This document shows, one piece after another, positions 1,398 to 54,380 of a stretch of DNA of 64,000 bases. Every line of letters starts with the position of its first letter. Within the stretch, counting starts at the first letter, position 1. Location: positions 16,648 to 80,647 of the forward strand of contig JBHIBC010000002.1 of assembly GCA_046758905.1 (NCBI GenBank), read 5' to 3'. The DNA comes from Acidobacteriota bacterium. GTDB lineage: Bacteria; Acidobacteriota; Polarisedimenticolia; Gp22-AA2. The translations under genes were made by a program, and so were the position numbers. The notes under the pieces are model-generated. The model worked only from the letters and a program-made list of their open reading frames with translations. It searched no databases and was not told the origin of the DNA.

Positions 1398-2852
1398 TCA
1401 GCGCGTGGCCCCGGCTCCCGCCTTGTCCGCCGCCCCGATCCGAGCCGGCCCGGGGCTCTCATCCCCGGCGGCCGCGGAGCCCGCCCTCTGGAGCTGCAGC
1501 AGGACCCGGGTGAACCAGGCCAGGAACAGCACCGAGCACAGCGCGCTGGCCAGGATCAGCCCCACGACGATCCCGTACAACGCCGGCCGCTCGACCTCCA
1601 GGGCCACCCGCCTGCCGAGCAGGGCGCAGGGCGCGGCCAGCACGACGTAGCGCAGGATGGCCATCACCAGCCCCGGGGAGCCCCGCTGCAGCCCCTCGAA
1701 GGCGGGACGCAGGAGCTGGAACGGGATCATCGACAGACACGCCAGCGGCGAGAGCCACAGCGCCACGCGCGTCAGGTCGGCGGTGATCTGCGACTCCGCC
1801 AGAAGCCGGGCGACGGCCGGGCCTCCGCCGATCATCGCGGGCGTCACCACGACGAGGCAGTAGGCGGCGGCCGCCAGCGTGATCTGCCGCAGGCCGCGGC
1901 GGATGGAAGCGAGATCGCCCTCGCCGTAGCGCCGCGCGACGAACGGGAGCACCGCGACCGAGGCGGCGATGATCGGCATCACCGCGAACAGCAGGACGCG
2001 GTAGTAGATGCCGTAGGCGGCGATCGCCTCGGTGGCGTGGGGCCGATCGGCGAGGAGCCAGTTGACCAGCGAGGTCTCGACCGCCATCAGTCCGTAGGTG
2101 AGCGCCGCGGGCAGCGCCAGAGCCAGGATCGACCGGAGCGGGGCCGGGTCGAGGGCCGGGGAGGTGTCCAGGCCGCTCGCCTTGCGGTCCGCCTCGTGCC
2201 GCGCGGCCCTGCGCATCGCGTAGATCAGGCCCCCGAAGCGACCCAGGACCGTGGACAGGGCGATCCCGAACACCCCCCAGTGGAGGGCGAACGTGAACAG
2301 GGTGTTGAGAACAACGTTGATCACGTTCGACCAGATCCCGGCCCACATGGTGGAGCGCGTGTCGTGGTGCGCCTTGACGATGGAGTCGGGGATGATCGAC
2401 CAGAAGGCTGTGAGGGCGGAGCCGCCGACCAGGACGCCGGCGTAGACGGCGAACAGGCTGGCCGTCTCCTCCTCGAGCCCCATGCGACCGGCCCCGAGCC
2501 AAACGGCCAGGGCGATGGCGGCGAAGACCGGCACCAGCCAGCGGACCATCCGCCGGGCGGTCGCCAGGAGCTGCTCGACCCGCGCACCCTCCCTGGCCCC
2601 CATGGCGCGCGACAGGCTGGAGGTCAGCCCCGTCGAGACGCCCACCCAGCAGGCGATCAGCAGGAACTCGAGCGGGATCGACAGGCCGATCGCGGCCACC
2701 GCGGCGTCCCCGAGGTAGGCGGCGTAGGCGGTGTCGACGAAGGTGAACAGCGATCGCATCCAGAACGACACGATCAGAGGGGCCGCCATCCGAAGGATGG
2801 ACGGGCCGTCGGCGGCGGTGGCCCACGAGGGGCGCTCTTCTCCGGGACGCAT
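1398..2852 (-). CDS. MATE family efflux transporter
   Basis: 484-aa polytopic membrane protein. N-terminus LRMAAPLIVSFWMRSLFTFVDTAYAAYLGDAAVAAIGLS is typical of NorM/DinF-type MATE proteins. Start may be the internal Met at 2789. Confidence 0.8.
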   Translation of the reverse strand: MRPGEERPSWATAADGPSILRMAAPLIVSFWMRSLFTFVDTAYAAYLGDAAVAAIGLSIPLEFLLIACWVGVSTGLTSSLSRAMGAREGARVEQLLATARRMVRWLVPVFAAIALAVWLGAGRMGLEEETASLFAVYAGVLVGGSALTAFWSIIPDSIVKAHHDTRSTMWAGIWSNVINVVLNTLFTFALHWGVFGIALSTVLGRFGGLIYAMRRAARHEADRKASGLDTSPALDPAPLRSILALALPAALTYGLMAVETSLVNWLLADRPHATEAIAAYGIYYRVLLFAVMPIIAASVAVLPFVARRYGEGDLASIRRGLRQITLAAAAYCLVVVTPAMIGGGPAVARLLAESQITADLTRVALWLSPLACLSMIPFQLLRPAFEGLQRGSPGLVMAILRYVVLAAPCALLGRRVALEVERPALYGIVVGLILASALCSVLFLAWFTRVLLQLQRAGSAAAGDESPGPARIGAADKAGAGATR

Positions 2853-3150
2853 GGGCCCACCGATGATAACCCGCGCCGGGCCCCGTCGCTCACGCGGGGC
2901 GCGGAGCGGGCGGCCGGCGGAGAGCGGATCGCGGCTCGTGGTGCCGGCTCCTCCGCTGTTGACTCGTTCCGGCCGGCGGGCATACCGTAGGTCCCACTAG
3001 GTGCCCCGGGCATCCCGCGCACACGCGATGGCCCCGGGTCCCCGCGGCGTCGCGGCAGCCGGGGAGCGCGGCTTCCTCGCGAACGGCGCGAGAGCCGTGC
3101 CCCGCAGCGCCGGGTGACGCCCGCCTCGCTCGACCCGGGCGGGAGGGGCG

Positions 3151-5858: not shown

Positions 5859-7085
5859 GTGCTGCTGCTTCTCCCCACGACCACCTACCACGCGCGCGAT
5901 TTCGTCGAGGCGGCGCACCGGCTGGGCGTCGAGACGGTGGTGGGGTCCGAGAGGGCGCAGGCGCTCGAGCCGCTGCAGCCGGGGGGCACCCTCACCGTCG
6001 AGCTGGGCTCCCCCGAGCGGGCCGCCGAGCGGATCGCGGAGTTCGCGCGCCGGCGGCCGCTGCGCGCCATCGTGCCGACCGACGACGGGACCGCGGTGGT
6101 GGCCGCGGTCGCGTCCCGGCGACTGGGTCTCCCGCACAACCCGCCGGAGGGGGCGCGCGCGGCGCGGCGGAAGGACGAGCTGCGCCGGCTCCTGCGCGCC
6201 TCCGGGGTCCGGACCCCCGGGTGGCGCCTGGAGCCGGTGGGCGCCGACCCCGCGGCCGCGGCGGCGCGCGCTGGCTATCCCTGCGTCCTCAAGCCGACCT
6301 TTCTGGCCGCGAGCCGAGGCGTGATCCGCGCCGACGGCCCGGACCAGTTCGTCGCCGCATTCGGCAGGATCCGCGCGCTGCTGGCGCGGTCGGACGTGGC
6401 CCGGAAGGACGCGGACGCGGCGGGCATCATCCTGGTCGAGGAGTTCGTCCCGGGAGCCGAGGTGGCCGTCGAGGGTCTCCTCCTGCGGGGCCGGCTCAAG
6501 GTCCTGGCCATATTCGACAAGCCGGACCCGCTCGATGGCCCCTACTTCGAGGAGACGATCTACGTCACCCCCTCGCGGCTGCCGCCGCGGACGCGGGGGG
6601 CCGTCGTCCGGACCGCGAGAGCGGCGGCGAAGGCGATCGGCCTCGCGGAGGGCCCGGTGCACGCGGAGCTGCGGATCGGCCGGGGCGTCCCGTGGGTGAT
6701 CGAGATGGCGGCGCGGTCGATCGGCGGGCTGTGCTCCCGGGCGCTGCGGTTCGGGACGGGGCTGTCGCTCGAGGAGCTGATCGTGATGCACGCGGTCGGG
6801 CAGGACGTGAGCCGGCTGGAGCGCCAGCGCGAGCCAGCGGGGGTGATGATGATCCCGATCCCGCGCGCCGGAGTCCTGAAGGAGATCGGCGGACTCGCCT
6901 CGGCTCGGGCGGTACCCGGTGTCGTCGACGTGACGATCAGCGCGACGCTCGGAAGGCCGCTGGAGCCGCTACCGGAGGGGTCGAGCTACCTCGGTTTCAT
7001 CTTCGCCCGCGGCCACCGTCCCGAGGACGTGGAGGGCGCGCTGCGCGAGGCGCACCGCAGGCTGTCGTTCGCCATCGAGCCCTAA
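5859..7085 (+). CDS. ATP-grasp domain protein (carboxylate-amine ligase-like)
   Basis: YPCVLKPTFLAASRGVIRAD..., LVEEFVPGAEVAVEGLL and IFDKPDPLDGPYFEETIYVTPS are ATP-grasp B/C-domain motifs. GTG start at 5859 is the first start codon in frame after the gltA stop. Confidence 0.7.
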   Translation: MLLLLPTTTYHARDFVEAAHRLGVETVVGSERAQALEPLQPGGTLTVELGSPERAAERIAEFARRRPLRAIVPTDDGTAVVAAVASRRLGLPHNPPEGARAARRKDELRRLLRASGVRTPGWRLEPVGADPAAAAARAGYPCVLKPTFLAASRGVIRADGPDQFVAAFGRIRALLARSDVARKDADAAGIILVEEFVPGAEVAVEGLLLRGRLKVLAIFDKPDPLDGPYFEETIYVTPSRLPPRTRGAVVRTARAAAKAIGLAEGPVHAELRIGRGVPWVIEMAARSIGGLCSRALRFGTGLSLEELIVMHAVGQDVSRLERQREPAGVMMIPIPRAGVLKEIGGLASARAVPGVVDVTISATLGRPLEPLPEGSSYLGFIFARGHRPEDVEGALREAHRRLSFAIEP

Positions 7086-8029
7086 CGCCGGCCGACGGTC
7101 ATGCTGTCGTAGACGATCCCCACCCAGGCGTCCGGCTCGAGGAACCCGCCTCCCCACTTGTCGTCGAGATCGCGCGTCGGCTTCGCCGCGATGACCTCGT
7201 CCCGGCCCTTCCCCCGGTCGATCAGCCGGCGGACACGGTCCCGGACCTCGACCAGCATGGCACGGTAGTCGCGATACTCCTTCACGCCGGAGACCTCTCC
7301 GTGGCCCGGGATCAGCCTGGTCTTCGGGCCGGCCATCTGCAGCACCCGGTCGGCGGCGGCGATCATGCCGTCCATCCTCCCGCCCGTGGACGCGTCGATG
7401 AACGGGTACATGCCGTTGAAGTAGGTGTCGCCGAGGTGGATCACGTTGGCCCGCGTGAAGTAGATGATCGAGTCGCCGTCGGTGTGCGCGGGATCGACGT
7501 GGAAGACCCGCAGCTCATCGCCGTTCCAGTGGAAGGTGATCGAGTCGGTGAAAGTGATCACCGGGAGGGCGGCCTCGGGCGCCGGTCCGGTGCGCCTGCC
7601 GAACGCCTCGATGAAGTTCTCGACGCTCATCCTCCTGCGGACGTTCTCGTGCGCGACGATCAGGGCGCCGGCCTCCCCGAGGTTCTCGTTGCCCCCGGTG
7701 TGGTCGCCGTGCCAGTGGGTGTTGATCACGAAGCGGATCGGCCCGTCGGTGACCGACGCCACCGCCGCTCTGATCTTCTCGGTGAGCGGGGCGTACTGGT
7801 CGTCCACGAGGAACGCCCCGTCCTCGCCGACCGACAGGCCGATGTTCCCGCCCCGTCCCCGGAGCATGTAGACGCCCTTCGCGAGCCTCACCGCCTCGAC
7901 GGTCGCGTCCGCCAGATCGTCCTGGGCCGCGGCCGGGATCGCCCCCGCGACGGCGATCGCCGCCAACAGAGCGCCGGCCCGCCGGCCCGCACGCCCTCGG
8001 GCCCCCGTTGAACCTAATGATCGAGTCAC
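7082..8029 (-). CDS. MBL-fold metallo-hydrolase, secreted
   Basis: Signal peptide (AGALLAAIAVAGAIPAAAQ). INTHWHGDHTGGN is the HxHxDH motif of a metallo-beta-lactamase fold. Confidence 0.85.
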   Translation of the reverse strand: MTRSLGSTGARGRAGRRAGALLAAIAVAGAIPAAAQDDLADATVEAVRLAKGVYMLRGRGGNIGLSVGEDGAFLVDDQYAPLTEKIRAAVASVTDGPIRFVINTHWHGDHTGGNENLGEAGALIVAHENVRRRMSVENFIEAFGRRTGPAPEAALPVITFTDSITFHWNGDELRVFHVDPAHTDGDSIIYFTRANVIHLGDTYFNGMYPFIDASTGGRMDGMIAAADRVLQMAGPKTRLIPGHGEVSGVKEYRDYRAMLVEVRDRVRRLIDRGKGRDEVIAAKPTRDLDDKWGGGFLEPDAWVGIVYDSMTVGRR

Positions 8030-8115: not shown

Positions 8116-9612
8116 TCAGAACCCGGCTTCGGGCGAGCGCGCGGGGTCCAACTGACCCTCCATCGGCTCGGCTCAGCAGAACCAGGGCTCGGACAGGCGC
8201 GGCGGCCGCCCCCGGTCGCGCCGCGGCGGTGGATGGAGGAGGGCGTCGGGGGACGGCGCGGGCGACTCGCCCCCGGCGCGCGCCGTGGCCGAGCGGATTC
8301 GCAGGAAGGTCAGGCGCGGGTCCTCGCGCGCGCGGGCGGCGCGCTCGACGATGGCCGCCACGTCCTCCTGGAGGCGGTCCACGCGCGCGTCGGGGTGGGT
8401 CCAGAGAAAGGTGTGACGGCCGGCGTCGAGCGGGCCGAGGAACGGCCGCACCTCGGGCCGATCGTTGAGCAGCGAGCCGGGCGGCAGCAGCAGGCGGATG
8501 GAGAGCTGCACCGGGTCGAGGTGGTCGATCAGGTCCCGGCGCTCCACGAAGTCGAGCAGGTCGCGGTGGTCCTCAAGGGTGGTCCAGGGCGTGAACGGGA
8601 CGAGGGACGGCCGCAGCGCCAGGCCGGCGTCCCGGGTCAGGGCGAGCGCCAGCTCCACGTCGGCGCGGGTGTGTCCCTTGTCGAGGATGGCGAGGACGCG
8701 GTCGCTCAGCGACTCGACCGCCGAGACGACGAACAGGCAGCCGAGCCGGGCCATCTCGGGGAGCAGGCCACGGTATCTCAGCAGGTGCGCGACCTTGGCC
8801 GTGAAGTCGAACGTCAGCCGCGGGAATTCGTCGTGGAGCCGCCGCAGGATCGCCATCGAGTGACCGGGACCGTTCAGGAAGTCCGGATCCCCGATCGTGA
8901 TGTGCGTCGCGCCGGCGGCCACCTGGCCCCGCGCGTCGGCCAGCACGACCTCGCGCGGCACGACGAAGAGGCGGCCGCCGTACACCGGAGGGATCGGGCA
9001 GTGCCGGCAGCCGTGCAGGCAGCCGCGGCTCGCCTCGAGGTGGCCGGCGATGCGGGTCGCGCCGTCCTGCTCGAGCCGCGCGTACCGATCGAGCGGCCGG
9101 AGCAGGCCCCGGTACGGCACCTCGAACCGGATCCTCCGGATCCAGGGTGGCTCGTCGGCGCCCCTCACGCGGACCCCGGGGATCGGCCCCGTCCCGCCCC
9201 GGTCCAGGCGCCCCGCCAGTCGGAGGAGCGGCTCCTCGTACTCGCCCCCGACGATCGAATCGGCCCCGCGCTCGAGAAGCGTCGCGGCGTTGAGCGACGC
9301 GTACAGGCCGTAGTAGCACAGGTGGCATGCGGGGTTGATCGCCCTGATCCGGTCCGCGACCCGCGACCCGAGCCGCAACGCCGTGTGCATCGGCACGGCG
9401 ACCGCGACCAGCCGGGCCGCCGCCACCGCTTCCGGGCGCAGGCGATCCACCGCGAGGTCGATCGCCTCGGGGGCGTATCCGGCGCGGCGCAGCAGGGCGG
9501 CCGGGGACGCGATCGACAGCGGCTGGTGTCCGAGCTCGTAACAGGAGATCAGCAGGATCGCGCCGGGTGCTCGGAGGGGCCTGGGGGTGTCGATCCACGC
9601 GGGAAGCCTCAT
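8116..9612 (-). CDS. B12-binding-domain radical SAM selenoprotein, CUAEP-tail family (in-frame UGA=Sec at 8173..8175; naive ORF 8176..9612)
   Basis: Radical SAM CxxxCxxC motif (SRGCLHGCRHC). N-terminal B12-binding-like domain (AILLISCYELGHQPL...). The minus-strand frame reads ...EPWFC-TGA-AEPMEGQLDPARSPEAGF-TGA, i.e. C-U-A-E-P. ATG at 9612 checked in sequence. Confidence 0.72.
8144..8159 (-). other. candidate SECIS-like hairpin 14 nt downstream of the Sec UGA (mRNA GGGUC-AGUUG-GACCC)
   Basis: 5-bp GC stem with a GU-containing apical loop at a spacing compatible with bacterial SECIS. Not folded computationally. Confidence 0.3.
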
Positions 9613-9644
9613 CGGCCACGCGGGCTCCGCGGCTCGTTCCCGCA

Positions 9645-9935
9645 CTACTTGGAGGGCTGGTAGTAAGGGTTCGTGCCGCCGGCGTGATCGGTCTGATCGA
9701 CGACCCCGGAGATCTGGGGGATCTCCTCCTTGAGGGTCGCCTCGATCCCCTGTTTCAGGGTCACGTTCACCATCCCGCACCCCTGGCAGCCGCCGCCGAG
9801 CATCAGGTAGACCACGTTCTGCTTGACGTCCAAGACCTCGACGAAGCCGCCGTGGCCGGCGATCGCGGGGTTGATCATCTCGTCGATGATCTTCTGGACT
9901 TTCTCCTTGACGGCGCTGTCGTCCAGAGGCTCCAT
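9645..9935 (-). CDS. NifU-like (Nfu-type) Fe-S cluster scaffold domain protein
   Basis: 96 aa. GGCQGCGMVNVTLKQGIE is the CxxC Nfu C-terminal domain signature. The track's 556-aa ORF 9645..11315 is a composite. Confidence 0.85.
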   Translation of the reverse strand: MEPLDDSAVKEKVQKIIDEMINPAIAGHGGFVEVLDVKQNVVYLMLGGGCQGCGMVNVTLKQGIEATLKEEIPQISGVVDQTDHAGGTNPYYQPSK

Positions 9936-10093
9936 CTTCCCGGCTCCTTTGCGACCGAACAGAGCGAACACGCGCCCATTATACGCGTCGGGCGGGCGGT
10001 TGGTGGCCTCGATATGCGGGTTTTCTGGGGCGCGCCGCGCCGCGTCGTCCGCCTTCACCGCCACCGGGACGGCCCGTTCCGGGGAGGGCCCGC

Positions 10094-11095
10094 TCAGCCC
10101 CGGGGCCGGCGCGGCTCCCATGGGTACATCGCGGCGACCTGCTCGGCGTACCCGTTGAAGATGCGGGTCGGGAGGACCTCCCCGGTGTCGATCCGCCGCT
10201 CCGTTGCCTGCGACCAGCGCGGGTGCGGCACGTTGGGATTGACGTTCGCCCAGAAGTCGTACTCGTCCGAGGAGTCGCTCCAGAAGGTCGAGGGCCGACG
10301 GGCAACCAGCTCGATCCTGACGATCGACTTGATGCTCTTGAAGCCGTACTTCCAGGGGACGACGAGGCGGATCGGCGCGCCGTGCTGGGCCGGGAGGGCG
10401 TGGCCGTAGATGCCGGTGACCATGAAGGCCAGCTCGTTGCGCGCCTCCTCGAGGGTCAGCCCCTCGTAGTAGGGCCAGGGGTACCAGCTCATCCGCCTCT
10501 GGCCCGGCGCCTGCTCGGGCCTGAGGAAGGCGAGCATCCGCACATGCCTCGCCGCCGAGCGCGGCTCGACGCTGTCGATAAGGGCGCGGAGCGGGAAACC
10601 GGTCCAGGGAACGACCATCGACCAGGCCTCGACGCAGCGGAAGCGATAGACACGCTCCTCGAGGGGAAAGGACCGGACCAGATCGTCGATGTCGAAGGTC
10701 CGCGGTCGGTGGCACAGGCCGGCGACCTCGACCTCCCAGGGTCGCGTCTCGAAGCGCTCCACGTGCCGCCAGACGTCCTTCCGCTCGGTGAACTCGTAGA
10801 AATTGTTGTGCCGTGCCGCGACCATCTCGTCGGTCGGGGGCGCTGCGGCGACGTACTCCGGACGTCGCGGGGCGGGGTAGAGGCCGGGACCTCCGGGGGG
10901 CGGGTCGGGCGGAGCGTCCGACCCGGCGCCGGCCCCTCGCGAGGTGGGCGGGGAACAGCCGAGGAGCAACGCAGCGGCCCCGATCCCCAGTTGGCCCATG
11001 TCCCGCAGAAAGCGGCGGCGGTCCCGGCAGGCCGATTCGGGCGTCGAACACGACTGCGGGATCTCCCACGGGCGCGGCACCCTGATCAGGGGCAT
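10094..11095 (-). CDS. msrP: protein-methionine-sulfoxide reductase catalytic subunit MsrP (YedY-type molybdoenzyme), TAT signal with lipobox-like LLGC
   Basis: TAT motif RRRFLRDMG then AAALLLGC. NNFYEFT, RFRCVEAWSMVVPWTGFPL and PWKYGFKSIKSIVRIEL are typical of MsrP. ATG at 11095 verified. Confidence 0.85.
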   Translation of the reverse strand: MPLIRVPRPWEIPQSCSTPESACRDRRRFLRDMGQLGIGAAALLLGCSPPTSRGAGAGSDAPPDPPPGGPGLYPAPRRPEYVAAAPPTDEMVAARHNNFYEFTERKDVWRHVERFETRPWEVEVAGLCHRPRTFDIDDLVRSFPLEERVYRFRCVEAWSMVVPWTGFPLRALIDSVEPRSAARHVRMLAFLRPEQAPGQRRMSWYPWPYYEGLTLEEARNELAFMVTGIYGHALPAQHGAPIRLVVPWKYGFKSIKSIVRIELVARRPSTFWSDSSDEYDFWANVNPNVPHPRWSQATERRIDTGEVLPTRIFNGYAEQVAAMYPWEPRRPRG

Positions 11096-11276
11096 GGCTC
11101 GACTCCTCGAGAGGGGCGGGCGAGCGGCCCGCCGCCCCATGCGATAGAATACCGGCACCCGCGCTGCCGGGAACAGAGAATCCCGCGGCAGCGCCTCCGA
11201 CCGGGGCCCGGCGCGTCCGCCCCGGCGCCGGTGAGGTCGCGGCCCGGGAGCGCGACGGCCGCGCGGGCGCGCACGC

Positions 11277-11879
11277 GTGCCACGTCATCGAGAGGCCCGA
11301 GTGAGGTTCGTCCACGAGATCATCGCCCTGGCGATCCTGCTCCTCGGGGCTGGGGCGATCGCCGTCGTCCCGCGCGATCTTCCCTCCTCCGCGGCGGCCG
11401 ATCCGGCGGCGTCACCGCCCGCGCCGATCGGGCCCGGGGACCTCTCGGCGGGGGCCGTGCCCCCCGCCCCCCGGAGCCCGCAGCCGGCGGTCCACATCCT
11501 GGAGCAGGATTCCCCGGCCATCGGCTCGGACGACGTGCTATCTCAGGCCGTGGGCGTCGAGATGCCGCGCGGCGCCTTCCTGCCGGTCCTCGAGGCGGGA
11601 TCGGTCCAGCCGGCCACCGGGTGGAAGGCGTTCAGGACGGCCTCGCCGGGGCAGGAGGAGATCCGGCTGCACGTCCTGCGGGGACGCTCCGATCGGATCG
11701 AGGAGAATCACTCCCTCGGATGGGTCCGGATCGGCGACCTTGAGCCGGGGCCACGGGGGCTGGTCGGCGCGGTCGTCTCCCTGAGGATCGTCGACGGCAA
11801 CATAGTCATGGCGGCGGTGGACGCCTTCTCGAGGAGGCCCGCCACCGTCCGGCCCATCGCTCCGCCCGCGGGGCGCTGA
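11277..11879 (+). CDS. hypothetical membrane-anchored protein
   Basis: 200 aa. N-terminal TM (IIALAILLLGAGAIAVV), Pro/Ala-rich linker, then a conserved-looking C-terminal domain. 12 nt upstream of the exonuclease gene. Confidence 0.45.
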   Translation: MPRHREARVRFVHEIIALAILLLGAGAIAVVPRDLPSSAAADPAASPPAPIGPGDLSAGAVPPAPRSPQPAVHILEQDSPAIGSDDVLSQAVGVEMPRGAFLPVLEAGSVQPATGWKAFRTASPGQEEIRLHVLRGRSDRIEENHSLGWVRIGDLEPGPRGLVGAVVSLRIVDGNIVMAAVDAFSRRPATVRPIAPPAGR

Positions 11880-11890
11880 AGTCGGGAACG

Positions 11891-12469
11891 ATGCCCGGGA
11901 CGATCTACTTCAGCGTCGATGTCGAGGCGTCGGGCCCCGTCCCGGCGCTTTACAACCTCGTCTCGATCGGCGCCGTGCCGGTGGTGCGGCGGACCGAAGG
12001 GTGGCGGCCGGACGACGGCCGGTTCTACGTGGAGCTCCGGCCGATCGCGGCGGGCTTCGACCCGGAGGCGATGGCGGTGCACGGCATCCCCCGGGAGCGG
12101 CTGGAGAGGGAAGGCGTGCCGGCCGGCGAGGCGATGCTCCGGCTGACCCGCTTCGTCGAGGGGCTGTCGGGCGGCGCCCTGAGGCCGGTCTTCGTCGGAC
12201 ACAACGCGGTCTTCGACTGGGCTTTCATCAGCTACTACTACGAGGCGCACGGCCTGCCGAACCCTTTCGGGTACAAGGCGCTGGAGCTGAAGTCGTTCGC
12301 GATGGGGCGTCTCGGGATCGACTGGCTCGAGACCGGGAAGGAGACGCTGCAGCGCCTGCTCCCCTCGCTTCCGCCTGAAGATCCGTCGCTGGTCCATCGC
12401 GCCGACTACGACGCGCTCTACCAGGCCGAGATCCTCTGCGCGCTGCTCAACCTGCCGGATCGGACCTGA
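11891..12469 (+). CDS. DEDDh 3'-5' exonuclease (DnaQ/epsilon-like)
   Basis: Exo I (YFSVDVEASG), Exo II (VGHNAVFDWAF) and Exo III (YHRADYDALY) motifs of a DEDDh exonuclease. Confidence 0.8.
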   Translation: MPGTIYFSVDVEASGPVPALYNLVSIGAVPVVRRTEGWRPDDGRFYVELRPIAAGFDPEAMAVHGIPRERLEREGVPAGEAMLRLTRFVEGLSGGALRPVFVGHNAVFDWAFISYYYEAHGLPNPFGYKALELKSFAMGRLGIDWLETGKETLQRLLPSLPPEDPSLVHRADYDALYQAEILCALLNLPDRT

Positions 12470-12506
12470 CTCCGGGCGGCCGCCTGCGCGGATGTTAGGA
12501 TAGGTC

Positions 12507-13220
12507 ATGCCCGGGGCGGAGCAGGTCGCGGAATTCGCCATCTGGTACGTCGTCTTCATCCTCACGCTCACGCTGCACGAGGGAGCGCACGCCCTGGTCG
12601 CGAGGCTCGGAGGGGACGATACCGCCTACCGGGGCGGGCAGGTCTCGCTCAATCCCTGGCCGCACATCCGGCGGGAGCCGTTCGGCACGGTCCTCGTCCC
12701 GTCCCTGACCTTTTTCCTCTCGGGCTGGATGATGGGGTGGGCCTCCGCGCCGTACGATCCGGTCTGGGCCCGACGCTACCCGCGTCGACAGGCGGCGATG
12801 TCGGCGGCCGGACCGGCCGCCAACCTCGTGCTGGCGGCCGCGGCGTTCGCGGCGCTGCGCCTGCTGCTTGGGGCCGGAGTCTTCGTCCCGGCGGACGTGC
12901 TCCGGTTCGGGTCGGTGGTCCAGGCGGCGCCCGGGACCCCCCCCGAGTCGCTGGCGCACGCCCTCGCCTTCGGGCTGTCGGTGGGAATGAGCCTGAACAT
13001 CGTGTTGTTCTTGTTCAACCTGATACCGCTGCCGCCGCTCGACGGCAGCGGCGTCCTGCAGGGGCTGGCGCAGGGCCGGGTGAGCCGCTTTCTGGAGGGC
13101 GTGGCGGCCAGCCCGATGATGTCGCTGGTGGGCCTCGTCCTCGCGTGGCGGATGGCCGGCATCATCCTGCCGCCCGCCTTCGCCGTCGTGGTGACGCTGC
13201 TTTACAGGGGTCTGGTCTAG
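12507..13220 (+). CDS. site-2 protease family (peptidase M50) membrane metalloprotease
   Basis: HEGAH (HExxH) in the first TM helix, a polytopic membrane protein and the LNLIPLPPLDG motif. Confidence 0.85.
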   Translation: MPGAEQVAEFAIWYVVFILTLTLHEGAHALVARLGGDDTAYRGGQVSLNPWPHIRREPFGTVLVPSLTFFLSGWMMGWASAPYDPVWARRYPRRQAAMSAAGPAANLVLAAAAFAALRLLLGAGVFVPADVLRFGSVVQAAPGTPPESLAHALAFGLSVGMSLNIVLFLFNLIPLPPLDGSGVLQGLAQGRVSRFLEGVAASPMMSLVGLVLAWRMAGIILPPAFAVVVTLLYRGLV

Positions 13221-13231
13221 GGAGGTCCTCC

Positions 13232-14668
13232 ATGTCGCGATTCCGCCTGGCGGGGGCGCCGCTGCTCGGCGCGGCGCTGCTCGTCGCCCCGCCGGCTGCT
13301 CACGGCTCCCGAGGGACGCCGTTCGAGGTCGGCAAGCCGTTCCCCGGCCTGGTCCTGCCGTCGGCGGCGGACGGGCGGCCGATGTCGCTGGAGCAATTCC
13401 GCGGCCGCAAGGTGCTCCTGCACATCTTCGCCTCCTGGTGAGCGGGCTGCCGCGTGCACGTGCCCGGGTGGCACGAGGCCGTTCGGTCGCTGGGGATCGG
13501 CGATCGCCTCCAGATGGTGGGGATCCTGCAGGAGCAGCATCCCGATCGGGCGCGGCTGTTCATGCAGTGGAAACGGATGGACTGGCCGCTGCTGGTCGAT
13601 TCCTTGGGCCTGCTTGGGGTGCCGTACGTTCCGATCACGCTGGCGATCGACGAGGGCGGCATCGTGCGCCGGATCGACCCTCCCCTCGCCTCTCCGGACG
13701 AGCTGAAGTCGACCTTCGTGGAGCGGCGGTTTCCGGGCGGCGAGGAAGGGCCGTCGCGGCCGCCGTCCGCCCCCGACCTCGAGGAGCTGTGTGCGGCCGC
13801 CGCCGAAAGGGGCGCGGCGGGGTGGCGCGCTTGCGCGGACGCCCTGTTCCTGTGGGGCGGGCCGCGCCGGCTCGACGAGGCCATCAGCCTGTACCGGAAG
13901 GCGATCGGAGCGGAGCCCGAGGACGGCGCGACCCACTTCCGCCTCGGGGTGGCGTACCGGGCCCGGTACGATTCCGAGGGCCGGCGGCCGGGCGATTTCC
14001 GGAGGGCGGTCGAGGCCTGGGCGCGGGCGCTCCACATCGACCCGAACAACTACATCCGGCGGCGGCGGATCCAGCAATACGGTCCGCGGCTCGAGAAGCC
14101 GTACTCCTTCTACGACTGGGTCGCGCTCGCCAGGCGGGAGATCCGGGCGCGGGGCGAACAGCCCCTTCCTCTGATCGTCGAGCCGGGCGGCGCCGAGTTC
14201 GCCCGTCCGGCCGCGGCCTTCGCTCCGGCCGCCGCCGCGGCGGAACCCGACCCGGAGGGACGGATCGTCCGCGACACGAGGGGCTTCATCCGGGTCGAGA
14301 GCACCGTCGTCCCGCCGGCGATCGCACCGGGCACGGCCGCTCGGGTGCACGTCACGTTCACCCCGAACGCCGCCATCAAGGCGCACTGGAACAACGAGGT
14401 CTCCGACCTGCTGGTCTGGCTGAGCCCTCCGAACGGCTGGCAGGTCGAATCACGGCGCCACGCCTATCCCAACCCGCCGCAGCCCGTCAGCCGCGAAGTC
14501 CGCGAGGTGGAGTTCGAGGCCCGGGCCCCTGAAGGCGCCGTCGCGCGCCGGGCGACGATCTCCGGGTACGCCCTGTACTACGTCTGCGAGGACGTCAAGG
14601 GGACCTGCCTCTACCGCCGGCAGGACCTGGAGATCCCGGTGCGGGTCGGGGCAGCCGAGCGCAGATAG
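13232..14668 (+). CDS. secreted TlpA/ResA-like thioredoxin-fold selenoprotein (UxxC) fused to TPR repeats and a DsbD-alpha-like C-x6-C domain; in-frame UGA at 13439..13441
   Basis: RBS GGAGG then ATG 13232. Signal peptide MSRFRLAGAPLLGAALLVAPPAAHG. ...KVLLHIFASW-TGA-AGCRVHVPGW continues in frame (the track splits it into ORFs ending at 13441 and starting at 13454 in the same frame). Downstream thioredoxin-fold strand (VPITLAIDEGGIVRR), TPR-like helices (LGVAYRARYDSEGR...) and a C-terminal YYVCEDVKGTCLYRRQ pair. Confidence 0.7.
13457..13477 (+). other. candidate SECIS-like hairpin 16 nt downstream of the UGA (CACGUGCC-CGGGU-GGCACGAG)
   Basis: 6-bp perfect stem cgtgcc/ggcacg with a 5-nt GU-containing loop. 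Seen by eye only. Confidence 0.3.
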
Positions 14669-14743: not shown

Positions 14744-14904
14744 ATTGAGACTGCCGCGGTTCCGCGGGCGGCGGCGGGAAAAAGCTTCGCCCGGGTCATC
14801 CAGCGCGCGACGCCGCCCGCGGAAATTTCGCGGGGATCCGGGAATCCCGGGCCCGAATGCGGCCGGGCAGATCTTCGAGGACGTTTCCGCAGGGAGAACG
14901 GCTC

Positions 14905-15906
14905 ATGATGCGCAACAGAGCGAGAAGGTGGAGGTTGCCGGCGGTCCTGATCGGCATACTCGGGTTCTCGGGGACGGGTCGCGAGGCTCTCGCCTACGAG
15001 TCCTATCACGACCCGCTGCAGAACGACAAGGGATACTGCTCCACCTGTCACCCCGGTTTCGCGGGCGGTCGGAGCGATGCGCTCCACGCCCTGCACACGG
15101 GCGGCTCCGACCCCGTCACCGGTGAATGCAGCTTGTGTCACACCGGCTCGGGCCGCGACAACCCGCTGACCATGTGGAGCATCGGCGATGGGAGCGGCAA
15201 CGGCCTCGGCTGCGCCGGCTGCCACGGCCGCATGTATGGGGAGGCGATCCGGGACAACTACCGCGGATTCCCCACCTTCGGCAGGAGCAAGTCCAGCGGC
15301 TACGGCCTGCGCCGGCACCACTTCAACAGCGGCGTGACCGTCTGCCTCGTCTGCCACGCGCCCGAGCCTCCCGGCGGAGCGATCCTGCCGGAGAGCGAGG
15401 GCCCGCCGTACTACGCCAGGAGCGACGTCAGCCTCGGCGGCCGGCCGGTGGACGCCTGCACCAACGAGGACACGGCCAACGACCAGGACGCTGCCGGCCT
15501 CGACAACGACGGCGACGGCCTGTACGAGCTGAACGACGCCGACTGCCTGGAGTGCACCCCGGGCGTCGTCGAGATGTTCGACGGCATCGACAACAACTGC
15601 AACGGCGAGACGGACGAGGTCGAGGGGCTCGGCTTCGGCGAACCCGGGAACCCCGCTCTCCTGAGCTGGAACGATCAGCCGCCGGAGGGGCAGCTGTACG
15701 ACGTCATGCGCAGCGACAGCCGGTTCTTCGCCCCCGACGCGCCGTTCTCCGCGTGCCTGGCGGTCGCCACCCCGACGCATTCCTTGGAGGACACGGAGCC
15801 GGTGCCGCCGGGCAGCGCTTTCTACTATCTGGTCCGCAACACGTTGATCTCCGACTACGGGAACTCGTCCGACGGGAGTCCGCGGCTGTTCACTGTCTGC
15901 CCGTGA
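14905..15906 (+). CDS. secreted tetrahaem c-type cytochrome with C-terminal MopE-like putative metal-binding motif
   Basis: RBS AGGGAG then ATG. Signal peptide. Four CxxCH motifs (CSTCH, CSLCH, CAGCH, CLVCH). C-terminal DNDGDG...DCLECTPGVVEMFDGIDNNCNGETDE resembles the MopE-type Cu/Ca-binding repeat. Confidence 0.8.
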   Translation: MMRNRARRWRLPAVLIGILGFSGTGREALAYESYHDPLQNDKGYCSTCHPGFAGGRSDALHALHTGGSDPVTGECSLCHTGSGRDNPLTMWSIGDGSGNGLGCAGCHGRMYGEAIRDNYRGFPTFGRSKSSGYGLRRHHFNSGVTVCLVCHAPEPPGGAILPESEGPPYYARSDVSLGGRPVDACTNEDTANDQDAAGLDNDGDGLYELNDADCLECTPGVVEMFDGIDNNCNGETDEVEGLGFGEPGNPALLSWNDQPPEGQLYDVMRSDSRFFAPDAPFSACLAVATPTHSLEDTEPVPPGSAFYYLVRNTLISDYGNSSDGSPRLFTVCP

Positions 15907-47827: not shown

Positions 47828-48025
47828 GTGCCCGAGCGCATCGCCGTTCTCCACGACACCCTACGGGACCGGCGGCAACCGGCCGACGCCGGCACGAACC
47901 GCGACGATGAGGTGCCGGGTGCTCGGGAGATCCGCCTTGCGGCGGTCGGTGGTCCGGGGTGCGCGAGCGGCCCGGCGGGCGCCGCCCGGCCCTCGGAGTC
48001 GGATCGACAGATGAGCCTCGTGTAG
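47828..48025 (+). CDS. small ORF (65 aa) with strong SD (AAGGGAG, 5-nt spacer, GTG) in the leader of the giant gene
   Basis: VPERIAVLHDTLRDRRQPADAGTNRDDEVPGAREIRLAAV... No recognisable family. Could be a leader peptide or spurious. Confidence 0.22.
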   Translation: MPERIAVLHDTLRDRRQPADAGTNRDDEVPGAREIRLAAVGGPGCASGPAGAARPSESDRQMSLV

Positions 48026-48312
48026 CGCAGGCCGGTCCGGCCAGCCTGGCGGTCGCCGGACCGTGGCCCTGCGCTCTCGTTTTGTCCCGGCCCGGGGCCG
48101 CTCCTGCCGCCGGAGGGGGAGGTTCTTCGGGACCGGTTCCCGAAGGATCGCCGGCGGCAGCAGCGACCGCGGGCGCGGGAGCGTCGGATAGGGCCCTCCG
48201 GGACCCGGCGGCGCCGGGGACGGACCGGGGAGGACGGCCGCTCCTGCGGCCCGGCGCACGCCACCGAAGGTGGTTGACGCAGCGGCGCGGCAGTCGTAAG
48301 AGGTTGTCCGTG

Positions 48313-51300
48313 ATGCGCCACGACGCGCCGCCCCGGGCCCGCGCGCGCCCGGCCCTGCTGCTGCTAGCCGCGATCGCCGGAACCTCGCCCGCGACGGCAG
48401 CGGATGCGGGCCCCTTCCCGGAACTCATCGGTTACGTCTACGTCAACGAGGGGACCACCGATCGCTCCCGACTCGCCGCGCCGAACGTCGTCACGGGCCT
48501 CGCGGCGTTCTCGGACGGTTCGCTGGCGCTGCTTTCCGGCTCGCCCTGGCCGACCGGCGGGACGGGGCCCGAGGGGGCGGTCTTCCTGGGCTCCCCGCGG
48601 GCGGGGATCTGCGTCGCGCGGCGCCGTCTGTACGTCGTCAATCAGGGAAGCGACGACATCGCGGCCTTCACCATCGGGGAGCACGGCTCGCTGACGGCCG
48701 TCCCGGGATCTCCCTTCTTCTCGGGCGGATCGAGCCCCGAGGCGCTGGCGGTCACGCCGGACGGCCGGTTCCTGTACGTCGGTCACACGGGTAGCCGCGA
48801 CCTCGCCGTCCTGTCCGTGGCGCCCGACGGCGGGCTGATCCCCGCGTCGGCGCCGATCGACCTCGATTCGGCGGTCGACGGCCTGGCGGTGACCCCCGAC
48901 GGCCGCTTTCTGATCGCCACGCTGCCGCTTTTGGCGCGGATCGCCGTGCTGGCGATCGCCGACGACGGGAGCCTCGCGCACGTGCCCGGGTCGCCCTTCC
49001 GCGGCGACGGCGAGACCACCGACGGCGTGTCGCTCGGCGCGGGCGGCGCGGACCTCTTCGTGGCGGTCGCCGACCCGTCGCGGCTGCTCGTCAGCCGGTA
49101 CCGGCTGCGCCCCGACGGGGTCCTGATCCGGATCCCGGGATCGCCGTTCTCCGGCCCCGGCGGGACCGCGAACATCGTGCACACCGTCCCGGGTGACCGG
49201 TTCCTGACGGCGTCGCTGCCCGCCCAAAACGCCGTGGCGGTCTTCCTGGTCGATCCCTCCGGCGGCTTGGTGCCGGCGCCCGGTTCGCCCTTCCCGAACG
49301 GTCCGCTCGGCACGAGCCCGGCGGGCATGGCTTCGGACCCGCTCGGCCGTCTCCTTTACGTGGCCGACACCCTGAGCGGCACGGTCAGCTCCCTCCTGGT
49401 GCGCGAGGACGGCCGGCTCGATCTGGCGGGGGACAGCGTCCGCACCGGCGTCGACGGACTGCCTCTCGCGAGCATCGTCTTCCTGCCGGCCGGCGACCAG
49501 GACGGCGACTTGGTGCCGGCGTCCTCCGACAACTGCCCCGCGGTGGCCAACCCGTCCCAGATCGACCGCGACGGCGACGGGCTGGGCGATCCCTGCGACA
49601 ACTGCCCTGAGGTCGCGAACCGGGGGCAGCGGGACGCCGACCTCGACGGTGCCGGGGATCCCTGCGACCCGGACCGCGACGGAGACGGCGTGGACGACAG
49701 CGCGGATCCCTGTCCCGACGTCGCGGATCCCGAGGGGGGCGATACGGACGGCGACGGCGTGGGGGACGCCTGCGACAACTGCCCCGACGACCCGAACCCG
49801 GATCAGGGCGACGTCGACGCAGACCTCATCGGGGACGCCTGCGACCGGCCGGCCATCCGGATCGGCTGGCTCTACGTGCAGACCGAGTCGCCCGAGAACG
49901 CCATCGCCGCGTACGAGGTGGACCTCGAGGGCCGTCTGCGCCGCCTGAGCGGCTCGCCGTTCCCGACGGGCGGGCTGGGGCCTGAGGGCAGCGCGGTGGC
50001 CCTGTTCGCGCCGCCGCGGCTGGCGGCGGGCCGGTTCCTGCCGGCCAGGCTGTTCGCCGCGAACCAGGGGAGCGACGACGTCAGCGTGTTCCGGATCGAG
50101 CAGGACGGAACGCCCGTCCCGATCCAGGGGTCGCCGTTCGCGAGCGGGGGCCGGCTGCCGGCGGGCCTGGCCCTGCACCCGAGCGGGCTGTTCCTCGCCG
50201 TGGCCAACCTGGGATCGCCGAATGTCGCGCTGTTCAACGTGAAGCCGGACAACCTGCAGCTCAAGAAGATCGCCGGCACCCCGATCCCGGTTCCGGGGCG
50301 GGTGAACGGCCTGGCGTTTCATCCGCGCGGCCGATTCCTTGAGGTCGGCCTGCCCGATCTGGGACGGCTGCGGGCCATACGCTTCGAGTCGCCTTTCCCG
50401 TTCGTGCCCGGCTCGACGATCGTCGACCCCGCCGGAGCGCCCGCCGGCTTCGCGTTCAACGGCGCCGGGGACCGCCTGTTCCTGAGCAGCGCCACGAGCG
50501 GGACCGCCAAGGTCAGCGCGTTCGCGATCGACGTCGAGGGTGTCGCCGAGCCGCTGCCGCGCACCACGGCGACCGGCGGCGGCTCCAACTCCAACGCCGT
50601 CGCTTTGGGATCGGGCGAGAGGTTCCTGTACGTCTCCAATCAGGCGAGCAACACCATCGACGTCTTCGGGGTCGAGGCCTCGGGAAGCCTGGTCCCGCAC
50701 CCCGGGACGCCGTTCCCGAACGCCCGCTTCGGCAGGACCCCCGTGGGGCTGACGATCGATCCCCTAGGGCGGTTCCTGTTCGCGGCCAACACCGCGTCCA
50801 ACAGTGTCTCCTCGTTCCGCATCCGGCCGGACGGCGGGCTCGAGCCCCTAGGTGCGGCGGAGAAGACGGGGGCCGCCCTGGGGCGGCCGCTCGGGGGGAT
50901 CGTCTTCCTCGGCGCGGGTGACGAGGACGGGGACGGGGTCGAGTTCGCGCTCGACAACTGCCCGGGCGCGCACAACCCGGGCCAGGAGGATGCCGACGGC
51001 GACGCCGTGGGGGACGCGTGCGACCGCTGTCCGGATCTGTTCGACCCGGCCCAAGTCGACTCGGACGGAGACGGCGCGGGCAACGCCTGCGACCCCGACC
51101 CCGACGGCGACGGTCTCGAGGGCGGGGAGGACAACTGCCCCGCGGACAAAAACCCGGGCCAGGAGGAGCGTGACGGCGACGGGCTGGGGGACCTGTGCGA
51201 TCGGTGCCCGGACGATCCCGCAAACGACGGCGACGGCGACGGGTCCTGCGCCGGGATCGACAACTGTCCTTCCATCGCGAACCCGTTCCAGGAGGATCAG

Positions 51301-53988: not shown

Positions 53989-54062
53989 CCCATAAGCGAT
54001 CGCCCGGCCGGACCACGATCGCTCCCGTATAATAGGGTTCCCCACCCATCCAGGAGGAGGGC

Positions 54063-54380
54063 ATGTCCAAGATCCCCGGCTGGTACAAAGAACAACAACG
54101 GCGATATCCCCGGGTCCTCGAGGCCTACGAGAAGCTGGGCCGGGCCTGTCAGGACGCCGGGCCGCTCGACGCGAAGGCCCGGGCGCTCGTCAAGCTGGGC
54201 ATCGCCGTGGGCACGCGACACGAGGGGGCGGTGCACTCGCACACGAGGCGTTCGCTGGAGGCGGGCGCCTCGATCGAGGAATGCCGCCACGTCGCTCTCC
54301 TGGCGACCACGACGATCGGCTTTCCCGCCATGATGGCCGCGCTGTCGTGGATCGAGGACCTCGCCAAGGACCGGGGCTAG
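54063..54380 (+). CDS. carboxymuconolactone decarboxylase / AhpD-like family protein
   Basis: 105 aa. The ...SIEECRHVALLATTTIGFPAMMAAL CxxH core is typical of the AhpD/CMD fold. Confidence 0.85.
   Translation: MSKIPGWYKEQQRRYPRVLEAYEKLGRACQDAGPLDAKARALVKLGIAVGTRHEGAVHSHTRRSLEAGASIEECRHVALLATTTIGFPAMMAALSWIEDLAKDRG

Follow-up and report, generated by a model that had tools for sequence, protein, structure and literature searches.

Two in-frame UGA codons in one Acidobacteriota window

The window analysed here is a 64-kb stretch of contig JBHIBC010000002.1, from a metagenome-assembled genome of an Acidobacteriota bacterium, with a GC content of about 72%. It carries two genes whose reading frames run through a TGA codon: a radical S-adenosylmethionine (SAM) gene with a C-U-A-E-P tail and a TlpA-like thioredoxin-fold gene with a W-U-A-G-C motif, in which U denotes the selenocysteine (Sec) that the TGA is predicted to encode. 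The original prediction, made from the letters of the sequence, placed two candidate Sec codons about 5 kb apart, and both were verified at the positions given in Table 1. Each falls where Sec or cysteine (Cys) is expected, the former at a position that is Cys in CCAEP forms of the radical SAM protein and the latter in a thioredoxin active-site motif.

As had been foreseen, both genes are mis-called in the source record. The radical SAM entry (MFQ5876182.1, P0121 among the homologues) is cut at the TGA, with 479 amino acids (aa) ending ...EPWFC, and the TlpA-like entry (MFQ5876189.1) begins past the TGA and is recorded as a "hypothetical protein" of 404 aa. In the list of open reading frames (ORFs) the TlpA-like gene was likewise split in two, 12737..13441 and 13454..14668, which share one frame.

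A six-frame scan of the window for TGA codons flanked on both sides by a coding-type GC content at third codon positions (GC3) of at least 0.85 returned the radical SAM and TlpA-like sites, the cydA/cydB junction and three stretches of 16-21 codons. The short stretches had no support, and the two candidate Sec codons were the only supported sites in the window; GC3 was at least 0.88 on each side of both. TGA is also the commonest ordinary stop here, terminating 25 of the 37 complete ORFs of high GC3, and is thus no general sense codon. Use of UGA as an ordinary sense codon, which the original prediction had named as a finding that would count against it, was therefore not seen.

Table 1. Positions of the two candidate selenoprotein genes, their elements and nearby genes in the window.
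Feature	Position	Strand	Remarks
Radical SAM gene with CUAEP tail, full reading	8116..9612	-	498 codons + stop; ATG at 9612; tblastn 9612-8119
Predicted Sec codon (UGA) of the radical SAM gene, C-U-A-E-P tail	8173..8175	-	TGA after ...PPRLSEPWFC; Cys forms read CCAEPT...
SECIS-like hairpin of the radical SAM gene	8144..8158	-	GGGUC-AGUUG-GACCC; covarying hairpin 12-15 nt past UGA, its conserved stem from 12-14 nt
TlpA-like gene, full reading	13232..14668	+	478 codons + stop; ATG at 13232; signal peptide, thioredoxin fold, TPR, Ig-like
Predicted Sec codon (UGA) of the TlpA-like gene, W-U-A-G-C active-site motif	13439..13441	+	TGA after ...KVLLHIFASW
SECIS-like hairpin of the TlpA-like gene	13459..13475	+	CGUGCC-CGGGU-GGCACG; 6-bp stem, 17 nt past UGA, loop CGGGU
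Predicted export signal of the TlpA-like protein	13232..13303	+	MSRFRLAGAPLLGAALLVAPPAAHG; inferred by reading the sequence
TPR-like helical region	13778..14149	+	Pfam TPR (weak); PDB profile matches to consensus TPR proteins
C-terminal Ig-like beta-sandwich	14288..14647	+	AlphaFold model of the domain alone, pLDDT 94.4
ATP-grasp ligase, BacD/DdaF-like	5859-7085	+	near the radical SAM gene
MBL (metallo-beta-lactamase) hydrolase	7082-8029	-	next to the radical SAM gene
Nfu-type Fe-S carrier	9645-9935	-	adjoins the radical SAM gene

The radical SAM protein belongs to a named family

Past the TGA, the radical SAM frame continues as AEPMEGQLDPARSPEAGF up to a second TGA, the true stop, at 8118..8116. 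With U written as C, the protein scored 674.5 bits against NF040546, the NCBIfam "CUAEP/CCAEP-tail radical SAM (seleno)protein" (cutoff 500), over profile positions 1-467 of 468. It carries the radical SAM cluster motif CxxxCxxC (...GCLHGCRHC...), the C-terminal C-[UC]-A-E-P motif (WFC-U-AEP) and, as in NF040546, a B12-binding-like N-terminal domain. The score and motifs place it in the family, whose name the NCBI source record also gives to the gene, and no structural difference from NF040546 was found. What the window adds is covariation in a putative selenocysteine insertion sequence (SECIS) and a recurrent neighbourhood of Nfu and ATP-grasp genes.

Among the 120 homologues listed as matches, the majority stop at ...EPWFC, and about 20 run on as ...EPWFCCAEPT(E/Q)(D/G/S)Q.... 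The closest Cys-form homologues among them (P0136, P0149 and P0154) end 19 residues past the second Cys, the same length as the read-through tail in the window, and the Cys-form tail follows the pattern ...EPWFCCAEPTEDQ[FM]DP.R.AE.RF. The codon itself was surveyed in 80 metagenome loci and the window, which gave 63 sequences with a readable site, the window's own included. The site was TGA in 53 of these and TGC or TGT in the other 10, and AEPT.GQ followed it in TGA and Cys-codon sequences alike.

Haft & Gwadz (bioRxiv 10.1101/2022.07.06.499078) refer to the CUAEP-tail family as a selenoprotein family that is uncharacterised and carries a rare CU motif, and NF040546 is missing from the table of 119 bacterial selenoprotein families in a 2026 review (PMC13188914). 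The radical SAM half of the finding is thus real, but the family is already known.

The TlpA-like site is TGA in every homologous sequence read

Past its TGA, the TlpA-like frame continues as AGCRVHVPGW... for 408 codons to a TAG at 14666-14668. With U written as C, residues 33-124 matched Pfam AhpC-TSA (PF00578) at 33.2 bits (cutoff 26) and the protein matched Redoxin (PF08534) at 27.9 bits (cutoff 26.6), both matches spanning the TGA. These scores above gathering, together with the W-U-A-G-C motif, identify a TlpA/ResA-like thioredoxin fold. The protein shares this fold, a W-C-x-x-C-type motif and an export signal with TlpA, ResA and CcmG (DsbE), to which its NCBIfam matches are weak; the N-termini of its homologues are of signal or lipoprotein type. 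It differs from them in the predicted replacement of the N-terminal Cys of the motif by Sec in every member seen, and in about 320 extra residues that comprise a tetratricopeptide repeat (TPR) region and an immunoglobulin (Ig)-like domain with a CX6C motif.

The best NCBIfam match was NF041054, the ResA-like WAxxUGC selenoprotein (E 9e-18; 64.7 bits against a cutoff of 300; alignment spanning the TGA). NF041054 is likewise a TlpA/ResA-like selenoprotein with Sec in its active-site motif, but only the thioredoxin domain aligned (profile positions 84-201 of 354), and the TPR and Ig-like regions lay outside the match. Membership was ruled out by this partial match below the cutoff and by a motif that reads U-A-G-C rather than U-G-C. 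There was no NCBIfam model that covers the whole TlpA-TPR-Ig protein.

When one genome was scanned for each GTDB species, 297 species proved to have a relative of the TlpA-like gene. The DNA was read at 80 loci and two more, yielding 80 distinct sequences with a readable site, the window's own included. All 80 had TGA at the site and none had a Cys codon, and the surrounding motif followed H(I/V)(F/W)ASW-TGA-AGC-R-x-HVP(G/V)W. Record titles placed the sequences in Acidobacteriota, Gemmatimonadota, Verrucomicrobiota, Phycisphaerae and Neomarinimicrobiota. Retention of TGA in all of the TlpA-like and 53 of the 63 radical SAM sequences puts both sites far beyond chance, in agreement with the proposal that coincidence was unlikely.

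Two loci were odd. In one from Bryobacterales (L041), at about 2750-3110, an unrelated N-terminus replaces the part before ...IIPEQHPERCRLFMQWK and the Sec motif is absent; in one from Gemmatimonadales (L048), at about 2979-3050, an extra stop occurs soon after ...HVPGWHEAT. Both may be assembly errors or decayed copies.

The source is itself a metagenome-assembled genome, and a sequencing or assembly error could in principle have created the TGAs. The codons recur at the same places in independent assemblies, however, including long-read chromosomes such as OZ250165.1 and OZ252291.1, which refutes this explanation; we give it practically no weight. These two chromosomes carry the TlpA-like gene, as do OZ250179.1 and OZ252293.1.

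Gene callers and the source record treat both TGAs as ordinary stops, in keeping with the usual stop codon of the window. Under that annotation the radical SAM protein would end at ...WFC, and the TlpA-like locus would be either a decayed pseudogene or two genes, one for a peptide of the 82-aa type and one for a TPR protein of 404 aa. The thioredoxin fold would then break inside its active-site motif, although a single domain model spans the site, and the frame is conserved on both sides of the TGA in every TlpA-like sequence read, across phyla. A pseudogene would not keep the TGA and the frame in some 300 species. The radical SAM tail past the TGA is conserved and equal to the tail of the Cys forms, and the hairpins described below accompany its TGA forms only. 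Ordinary termination is therefore extremely improbable at these sites.

Hairpins follow both UGA codons

Bacterial SECIS elements of the Escherichia coli fdhF type are short hairpins that lie inside the ORF, slightly more than 10 nt past the UGA, and have an apical loop containing G and U. Both hairpins in the window are alike to this type in their placement within the ORF, their distance and their G/U-containing apical loop, and differ from it in sequence; binding of SelB to them is a prediction.

The radical SAM hairpin has a stem of 5-7 bp and a loop AGUU(G), with a G in the apical loop. Folding of the 33 nt that begin 9 nt past the UGA gave a mean energy of -13.8 kcal/mol for TGA forms (n=51) versus -5.4 for Cys forms (n=10; Mann-Whitney p=3e-6), and the covarying hairpin was limited to the TGA forms. 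Its stem occurred as GGGUC/GACCC, GGGCC/GGCCC, GGACC/GGUCC, GAGCC/GGCUC and AGACC/GGUCU, and RNAalifold detected compensatory double changes in 4 of the 5 stem pairs. The contrast between Sec and Cys forms within this family offers SECIS prediction a clean natural control.

The TlpA-like hairpin is likewise a stem-loop with a G in its apical loop. In 79 sequences, 97.5% of the stem cells were paired, and the changes seen were exclusively from G-C to G-U. Third positions over the stem were almost fixed: from codon +6 to codon +11, Val was GTG in 79/79 sequences, Pro was CCC in 73/79, Gly was GGG in 66/71 and His was CAC in 75/77. Other conserved four-fold codons of the gene had an entropy of 1.2-1.75 bits. 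The frozen synonymous sites thus point to an RNA element overlaid on the coding sequence.

A conserved peptide, HVPGWH, might account for this nucleotide conservation by itself, in which case Sec insertion in the TlpA-like gene would be left with no established SECIS. The peptide is near-invariant, and the stem offers no double compensatory change that would distinguish the two causes. Conservation of the peptide would not explain why third positions are frozen solely over these codons, where Val is invariably GTG against 1.5 bits at another conserved Val, nor why the few stem changes all keep a pair as G-U. Shifting the pairing register, moreover, lowered pairing from 97.5% to 17-64%. A constraint from the peptide alone is accordingly unlikely, and a candidate RNA element is preferred.

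About 20 nt around the TlpA-like hairpin are near-identical across at least 5 phyla (window positions 13433-13507 and 78 loci), in proteins that are only 55-68% identical. This near-identity may reflect an unusually tight SelB/SECIS constraint or horizontal spread.

Selenocysteine is the most probable reading of both codons

Because the TGA is kept in homologues (or is Cys, in the radical SAM family), the downstream peptide is conserved and a hairpin stands at SECIS distance, both UGAs are best read as Sec codons, most likely decoded through the standard SelB/tRNA-Sec route and guided by the downstream hairpin within the ORF. We put the probability of this reading at roughly 0.9. Two independent Sec codons imply a Sec-using organism, as the original prediction had proposed, and Sec-using Acidobacteriota are already documented (PMC12013277).

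Several results weigh against this reading. Across the window and 162 related loci, tblastn with E. coli SelA, SelB and SelD detected no homologue of selA, selB or selD, and ARAGORN detected no tRNA gene; the sole match was a ThiL-like AIRS protein in one locus (L001). Rfam SECIS models matched neither hairpin at gathering or permissive thresholds. The folding energy of single sequences was not below that of shuffles for either hairpin region (z about -0.8 to -1.0), a comparison that is uninformative because the sequence is 72% GC. No double compensatory change occurred in the TlpA-like stem in 79 sequences, because the stem hardly varies, so that this hairpin is predicted solely from synonymous-site conservation. 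Finally, the selenium in both proteins, like its insertion and like their export, substrates and electron path, is predicted from sequence.

The missing Sec machinery in the window and the related loci would also fit read-through of UGA by other means, either near-cognate insertion of Trp or Cys or a reassignment across the lineage. Most genes of the window end in TGA, however, and the two sites show the classic Sec/Cys pattern, one lying where a CxxC motif has its catalytic Cys, the other corresponding to a Cys in CCAEP homologues. Hairpins with G/U-containing loops at SECIS distance also speak against such read-through, as does the curation of NF040546 as a selenoprotein family (bioRxiv 10.1101/2022.07.06.499078). 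Read-through without Sec is therefore very improbable, and Sec remains the preferred reading of both codons.

The original prediction had further held that the two proteins extend the catalogue of Sec use. This stands at most for the TlpA-TPR-Ig family, since the radical SAM family was already named and, among bacterial selenoproteins, UxxC proteins with a thioredoxin fold are the most common kind (PMC13188914, Table 1).

The TlpA-like protein is represented in databases by fragments

Database entries for the TlpA-like protein reproduce the break at the TGA. A search of 5.8 billion protein clusters returned 1,818 hits (clusters at 90% identity), and all 120 of these that were listed were about 400 aa long and aligned solely with the part of the query past the TGA, 79-85% of its length. 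When 1.84 billion representatives were searched exhaustively with a profile, 471 had E below 1e-30; among the best 150 of the 471, nearly all start at the residue directly past the TGA. A search with the thioredoxin domain alone recovered pieces ending ...FASW or beginning VHVPGW, none of which crosses the site.

Among the same best 150, a single representative (P0384) was truly full-length. Its motif reads FASS-S-ASS, with Trp, Sec and the resolving Cys all lost, and neither cysteine of the C-terminal CX6C remains. The joint loss of these redox residues suggests that the Sec motif and CX6C work together. P0384 thus looks like a redox-dead relative, and the two motifs may be functionally coupled.

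In the literature searched, no paper describing a TPR-fused TlpA selenoprotein was found, though the family may have been described before. The table of 119 families in the 2026 review (PMC13188914), compared by description only, holds generic UxxC entries named "thiol-disulfide isomerase-like" and "redoxin family" and no TPR fusion. The TlpA-TPR-Ig protein appears to be new, or at least uncurated, within the commonest class of bacterial selenoproteins.

Domain architecture and predicted mechanism of the TlpA-like protein

AlphaFold was used to model the 404-aa part past the TGA (predicted local distance difference test, pLDDT, 78.7) and the last 143 residues alone (pLDDT 94.4). Helices span residues 109-232 of the post-TGA protein (P0001) in the TPR region, with pLDDT 80-98. 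The C-terminal domain is modelled as a seven-strand beta-sandwich, whose last hairpin is flanked by an invariant Cys-x6-Cys formed by Cys452 (14585-14587) and Cys459 (14606-14608). A Foldseek search of the PDB with this domain gave generic beta-sandwich matches at template modelling (TM) scores of at most 0.55. Homology to DsbD-alpha (PF11412) was rejected, as neither sequence nor fold similarity was found and the matches were only of a generic Ig-like kind.

From these features, the TlpA-like protein would be an exported TlpA/ResA-like selenol/thiol oxidoreductase. In place of the attacking Cys of W-C-x-x-C, Sec would attack a disulfide or an oxidised thiol of a substrate in the cell envelope, forming a selenylsulfide that the Cys of the W-U-A-G-C motif would then resolve. 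Choice of the partner protein would fall to the TPR and Ig-like domains, and CX6C of the Ig-like domain may relay electrons.

Predicted chemistry and neighbours of the radical SAM gene

The radical SAM protein also resembles ArsL, an RCCLKC-tail radical SAM protein of arsinothricin biosynthesis (NF040542), which forms a sister family matched at 293 bits over residues 19-423. ArsL itself was ruled out, since this score lies below the NF040542 cutoff of 450 and the tail reads CUAEP, not RCCLKC; unlike ArsL, the gene has no arsM or ars operon near it in the window. ArsL cleaves SAM to a 3-amino-3-carboxypropyl radical, and its Cys-rich C-terminal tail holds As(III), the acceptor of that radical (bioRxiv 10.1101/2024.02.01.577332). 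The window protein has a comparable C-terminal tail, in which Sec would form part of a vicinal Cys-Sec pair. By analogy with the As(III)-binding tail of ArsL, a soft metalloid or chalcogen substrate is probably held by the C-U pair and would receive the SAM-derived radical.

Neighbours of the radical SAM gene were counted at the 41 metagenome loci whose downstream flank was 2.5 kb or longer. An Nfu gene was present in 12 and an ATP-grasp gene in 14, with both in nine (L085, L089, L096, L106, L109, L126, L132, L144 and L149). This recurrence hints that an ArsL-like enzyme may be part of a small-molecule pathway, and these neighbours are a lead toward such chemistry.

Other genes near the two loci

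Neither the radical SAM and TlpA-like genes together nor any conserved neighbour of the TlpA-like gene, including ccm, sco and dsbD, was found among the related loci compared. As the two genes are unlinked elsewhere, their proximity of 5 kb in the window is incidental. Between them lies a gene for MsrP, the catalytic subunit of a periplasmic methionine sulfoxide reductase (10094-11095, -; 394.7 bits against a cutoff of 207); only 2 further loci were seen to have it beside the radical SAM gene.

Directly 3' of the TlpA-like gene, the product of 14857-15906 (+) looks secreted and has four CxxCH motifs (CSTCH, CSLCH, CAGCH and CLVCH) and Asp-rich DNDGDG-type repeats; it had no Pfam or NCBIfam match. 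A c-type cytochrome beside a TlpA-like reductase is suggestive, but other loci do not conserve this arrangement.

The CMD/AhpD family includes known CxxU selenoproteins, and a gene of this family at 54060-54380 (+) was considered as a third selenoprotein. It was rejected, as it lacks any CxxC or CxxU motif and its stop codon is TAG. An ORF of 2,025 codons at 47911-53988 (+), with matches to a lactonase-type beta-propeller and thrombospondin type 3 repeats, is unrelated to the Sec finding.

Implications for selenocysteine use

We tentatively propose, at a little short of even odds, that TlpA-TPR-Ig is an undescribed, obligately Sec-containing selenoprotein family. It would span some 300 GTDB species from phyla of soils and sediments (Acidobacteriota, Gemmatimonadota, Verrucomicrobiota and others), with no Cys orthologue seen, a near-invariant SECIS and a second redox motif that is lost jointly with the first. 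If so, the protein would be a systematically missed marker of Sec use and a case in which Cys apparently cannot substitute. Every database entry seen for it is a fragment that lacks both the signal peptide and the catalytic residue. A curated model that includes the Sec position would mend the annotation of hundreds of genomes and help to reveal Sec use in Acidobacteriota, Gemmatimonadota and Verrucomicrobiota, and a thioredoxin-fold family without Cys orthologues would offer a test case for what Sec does beyond Cys.

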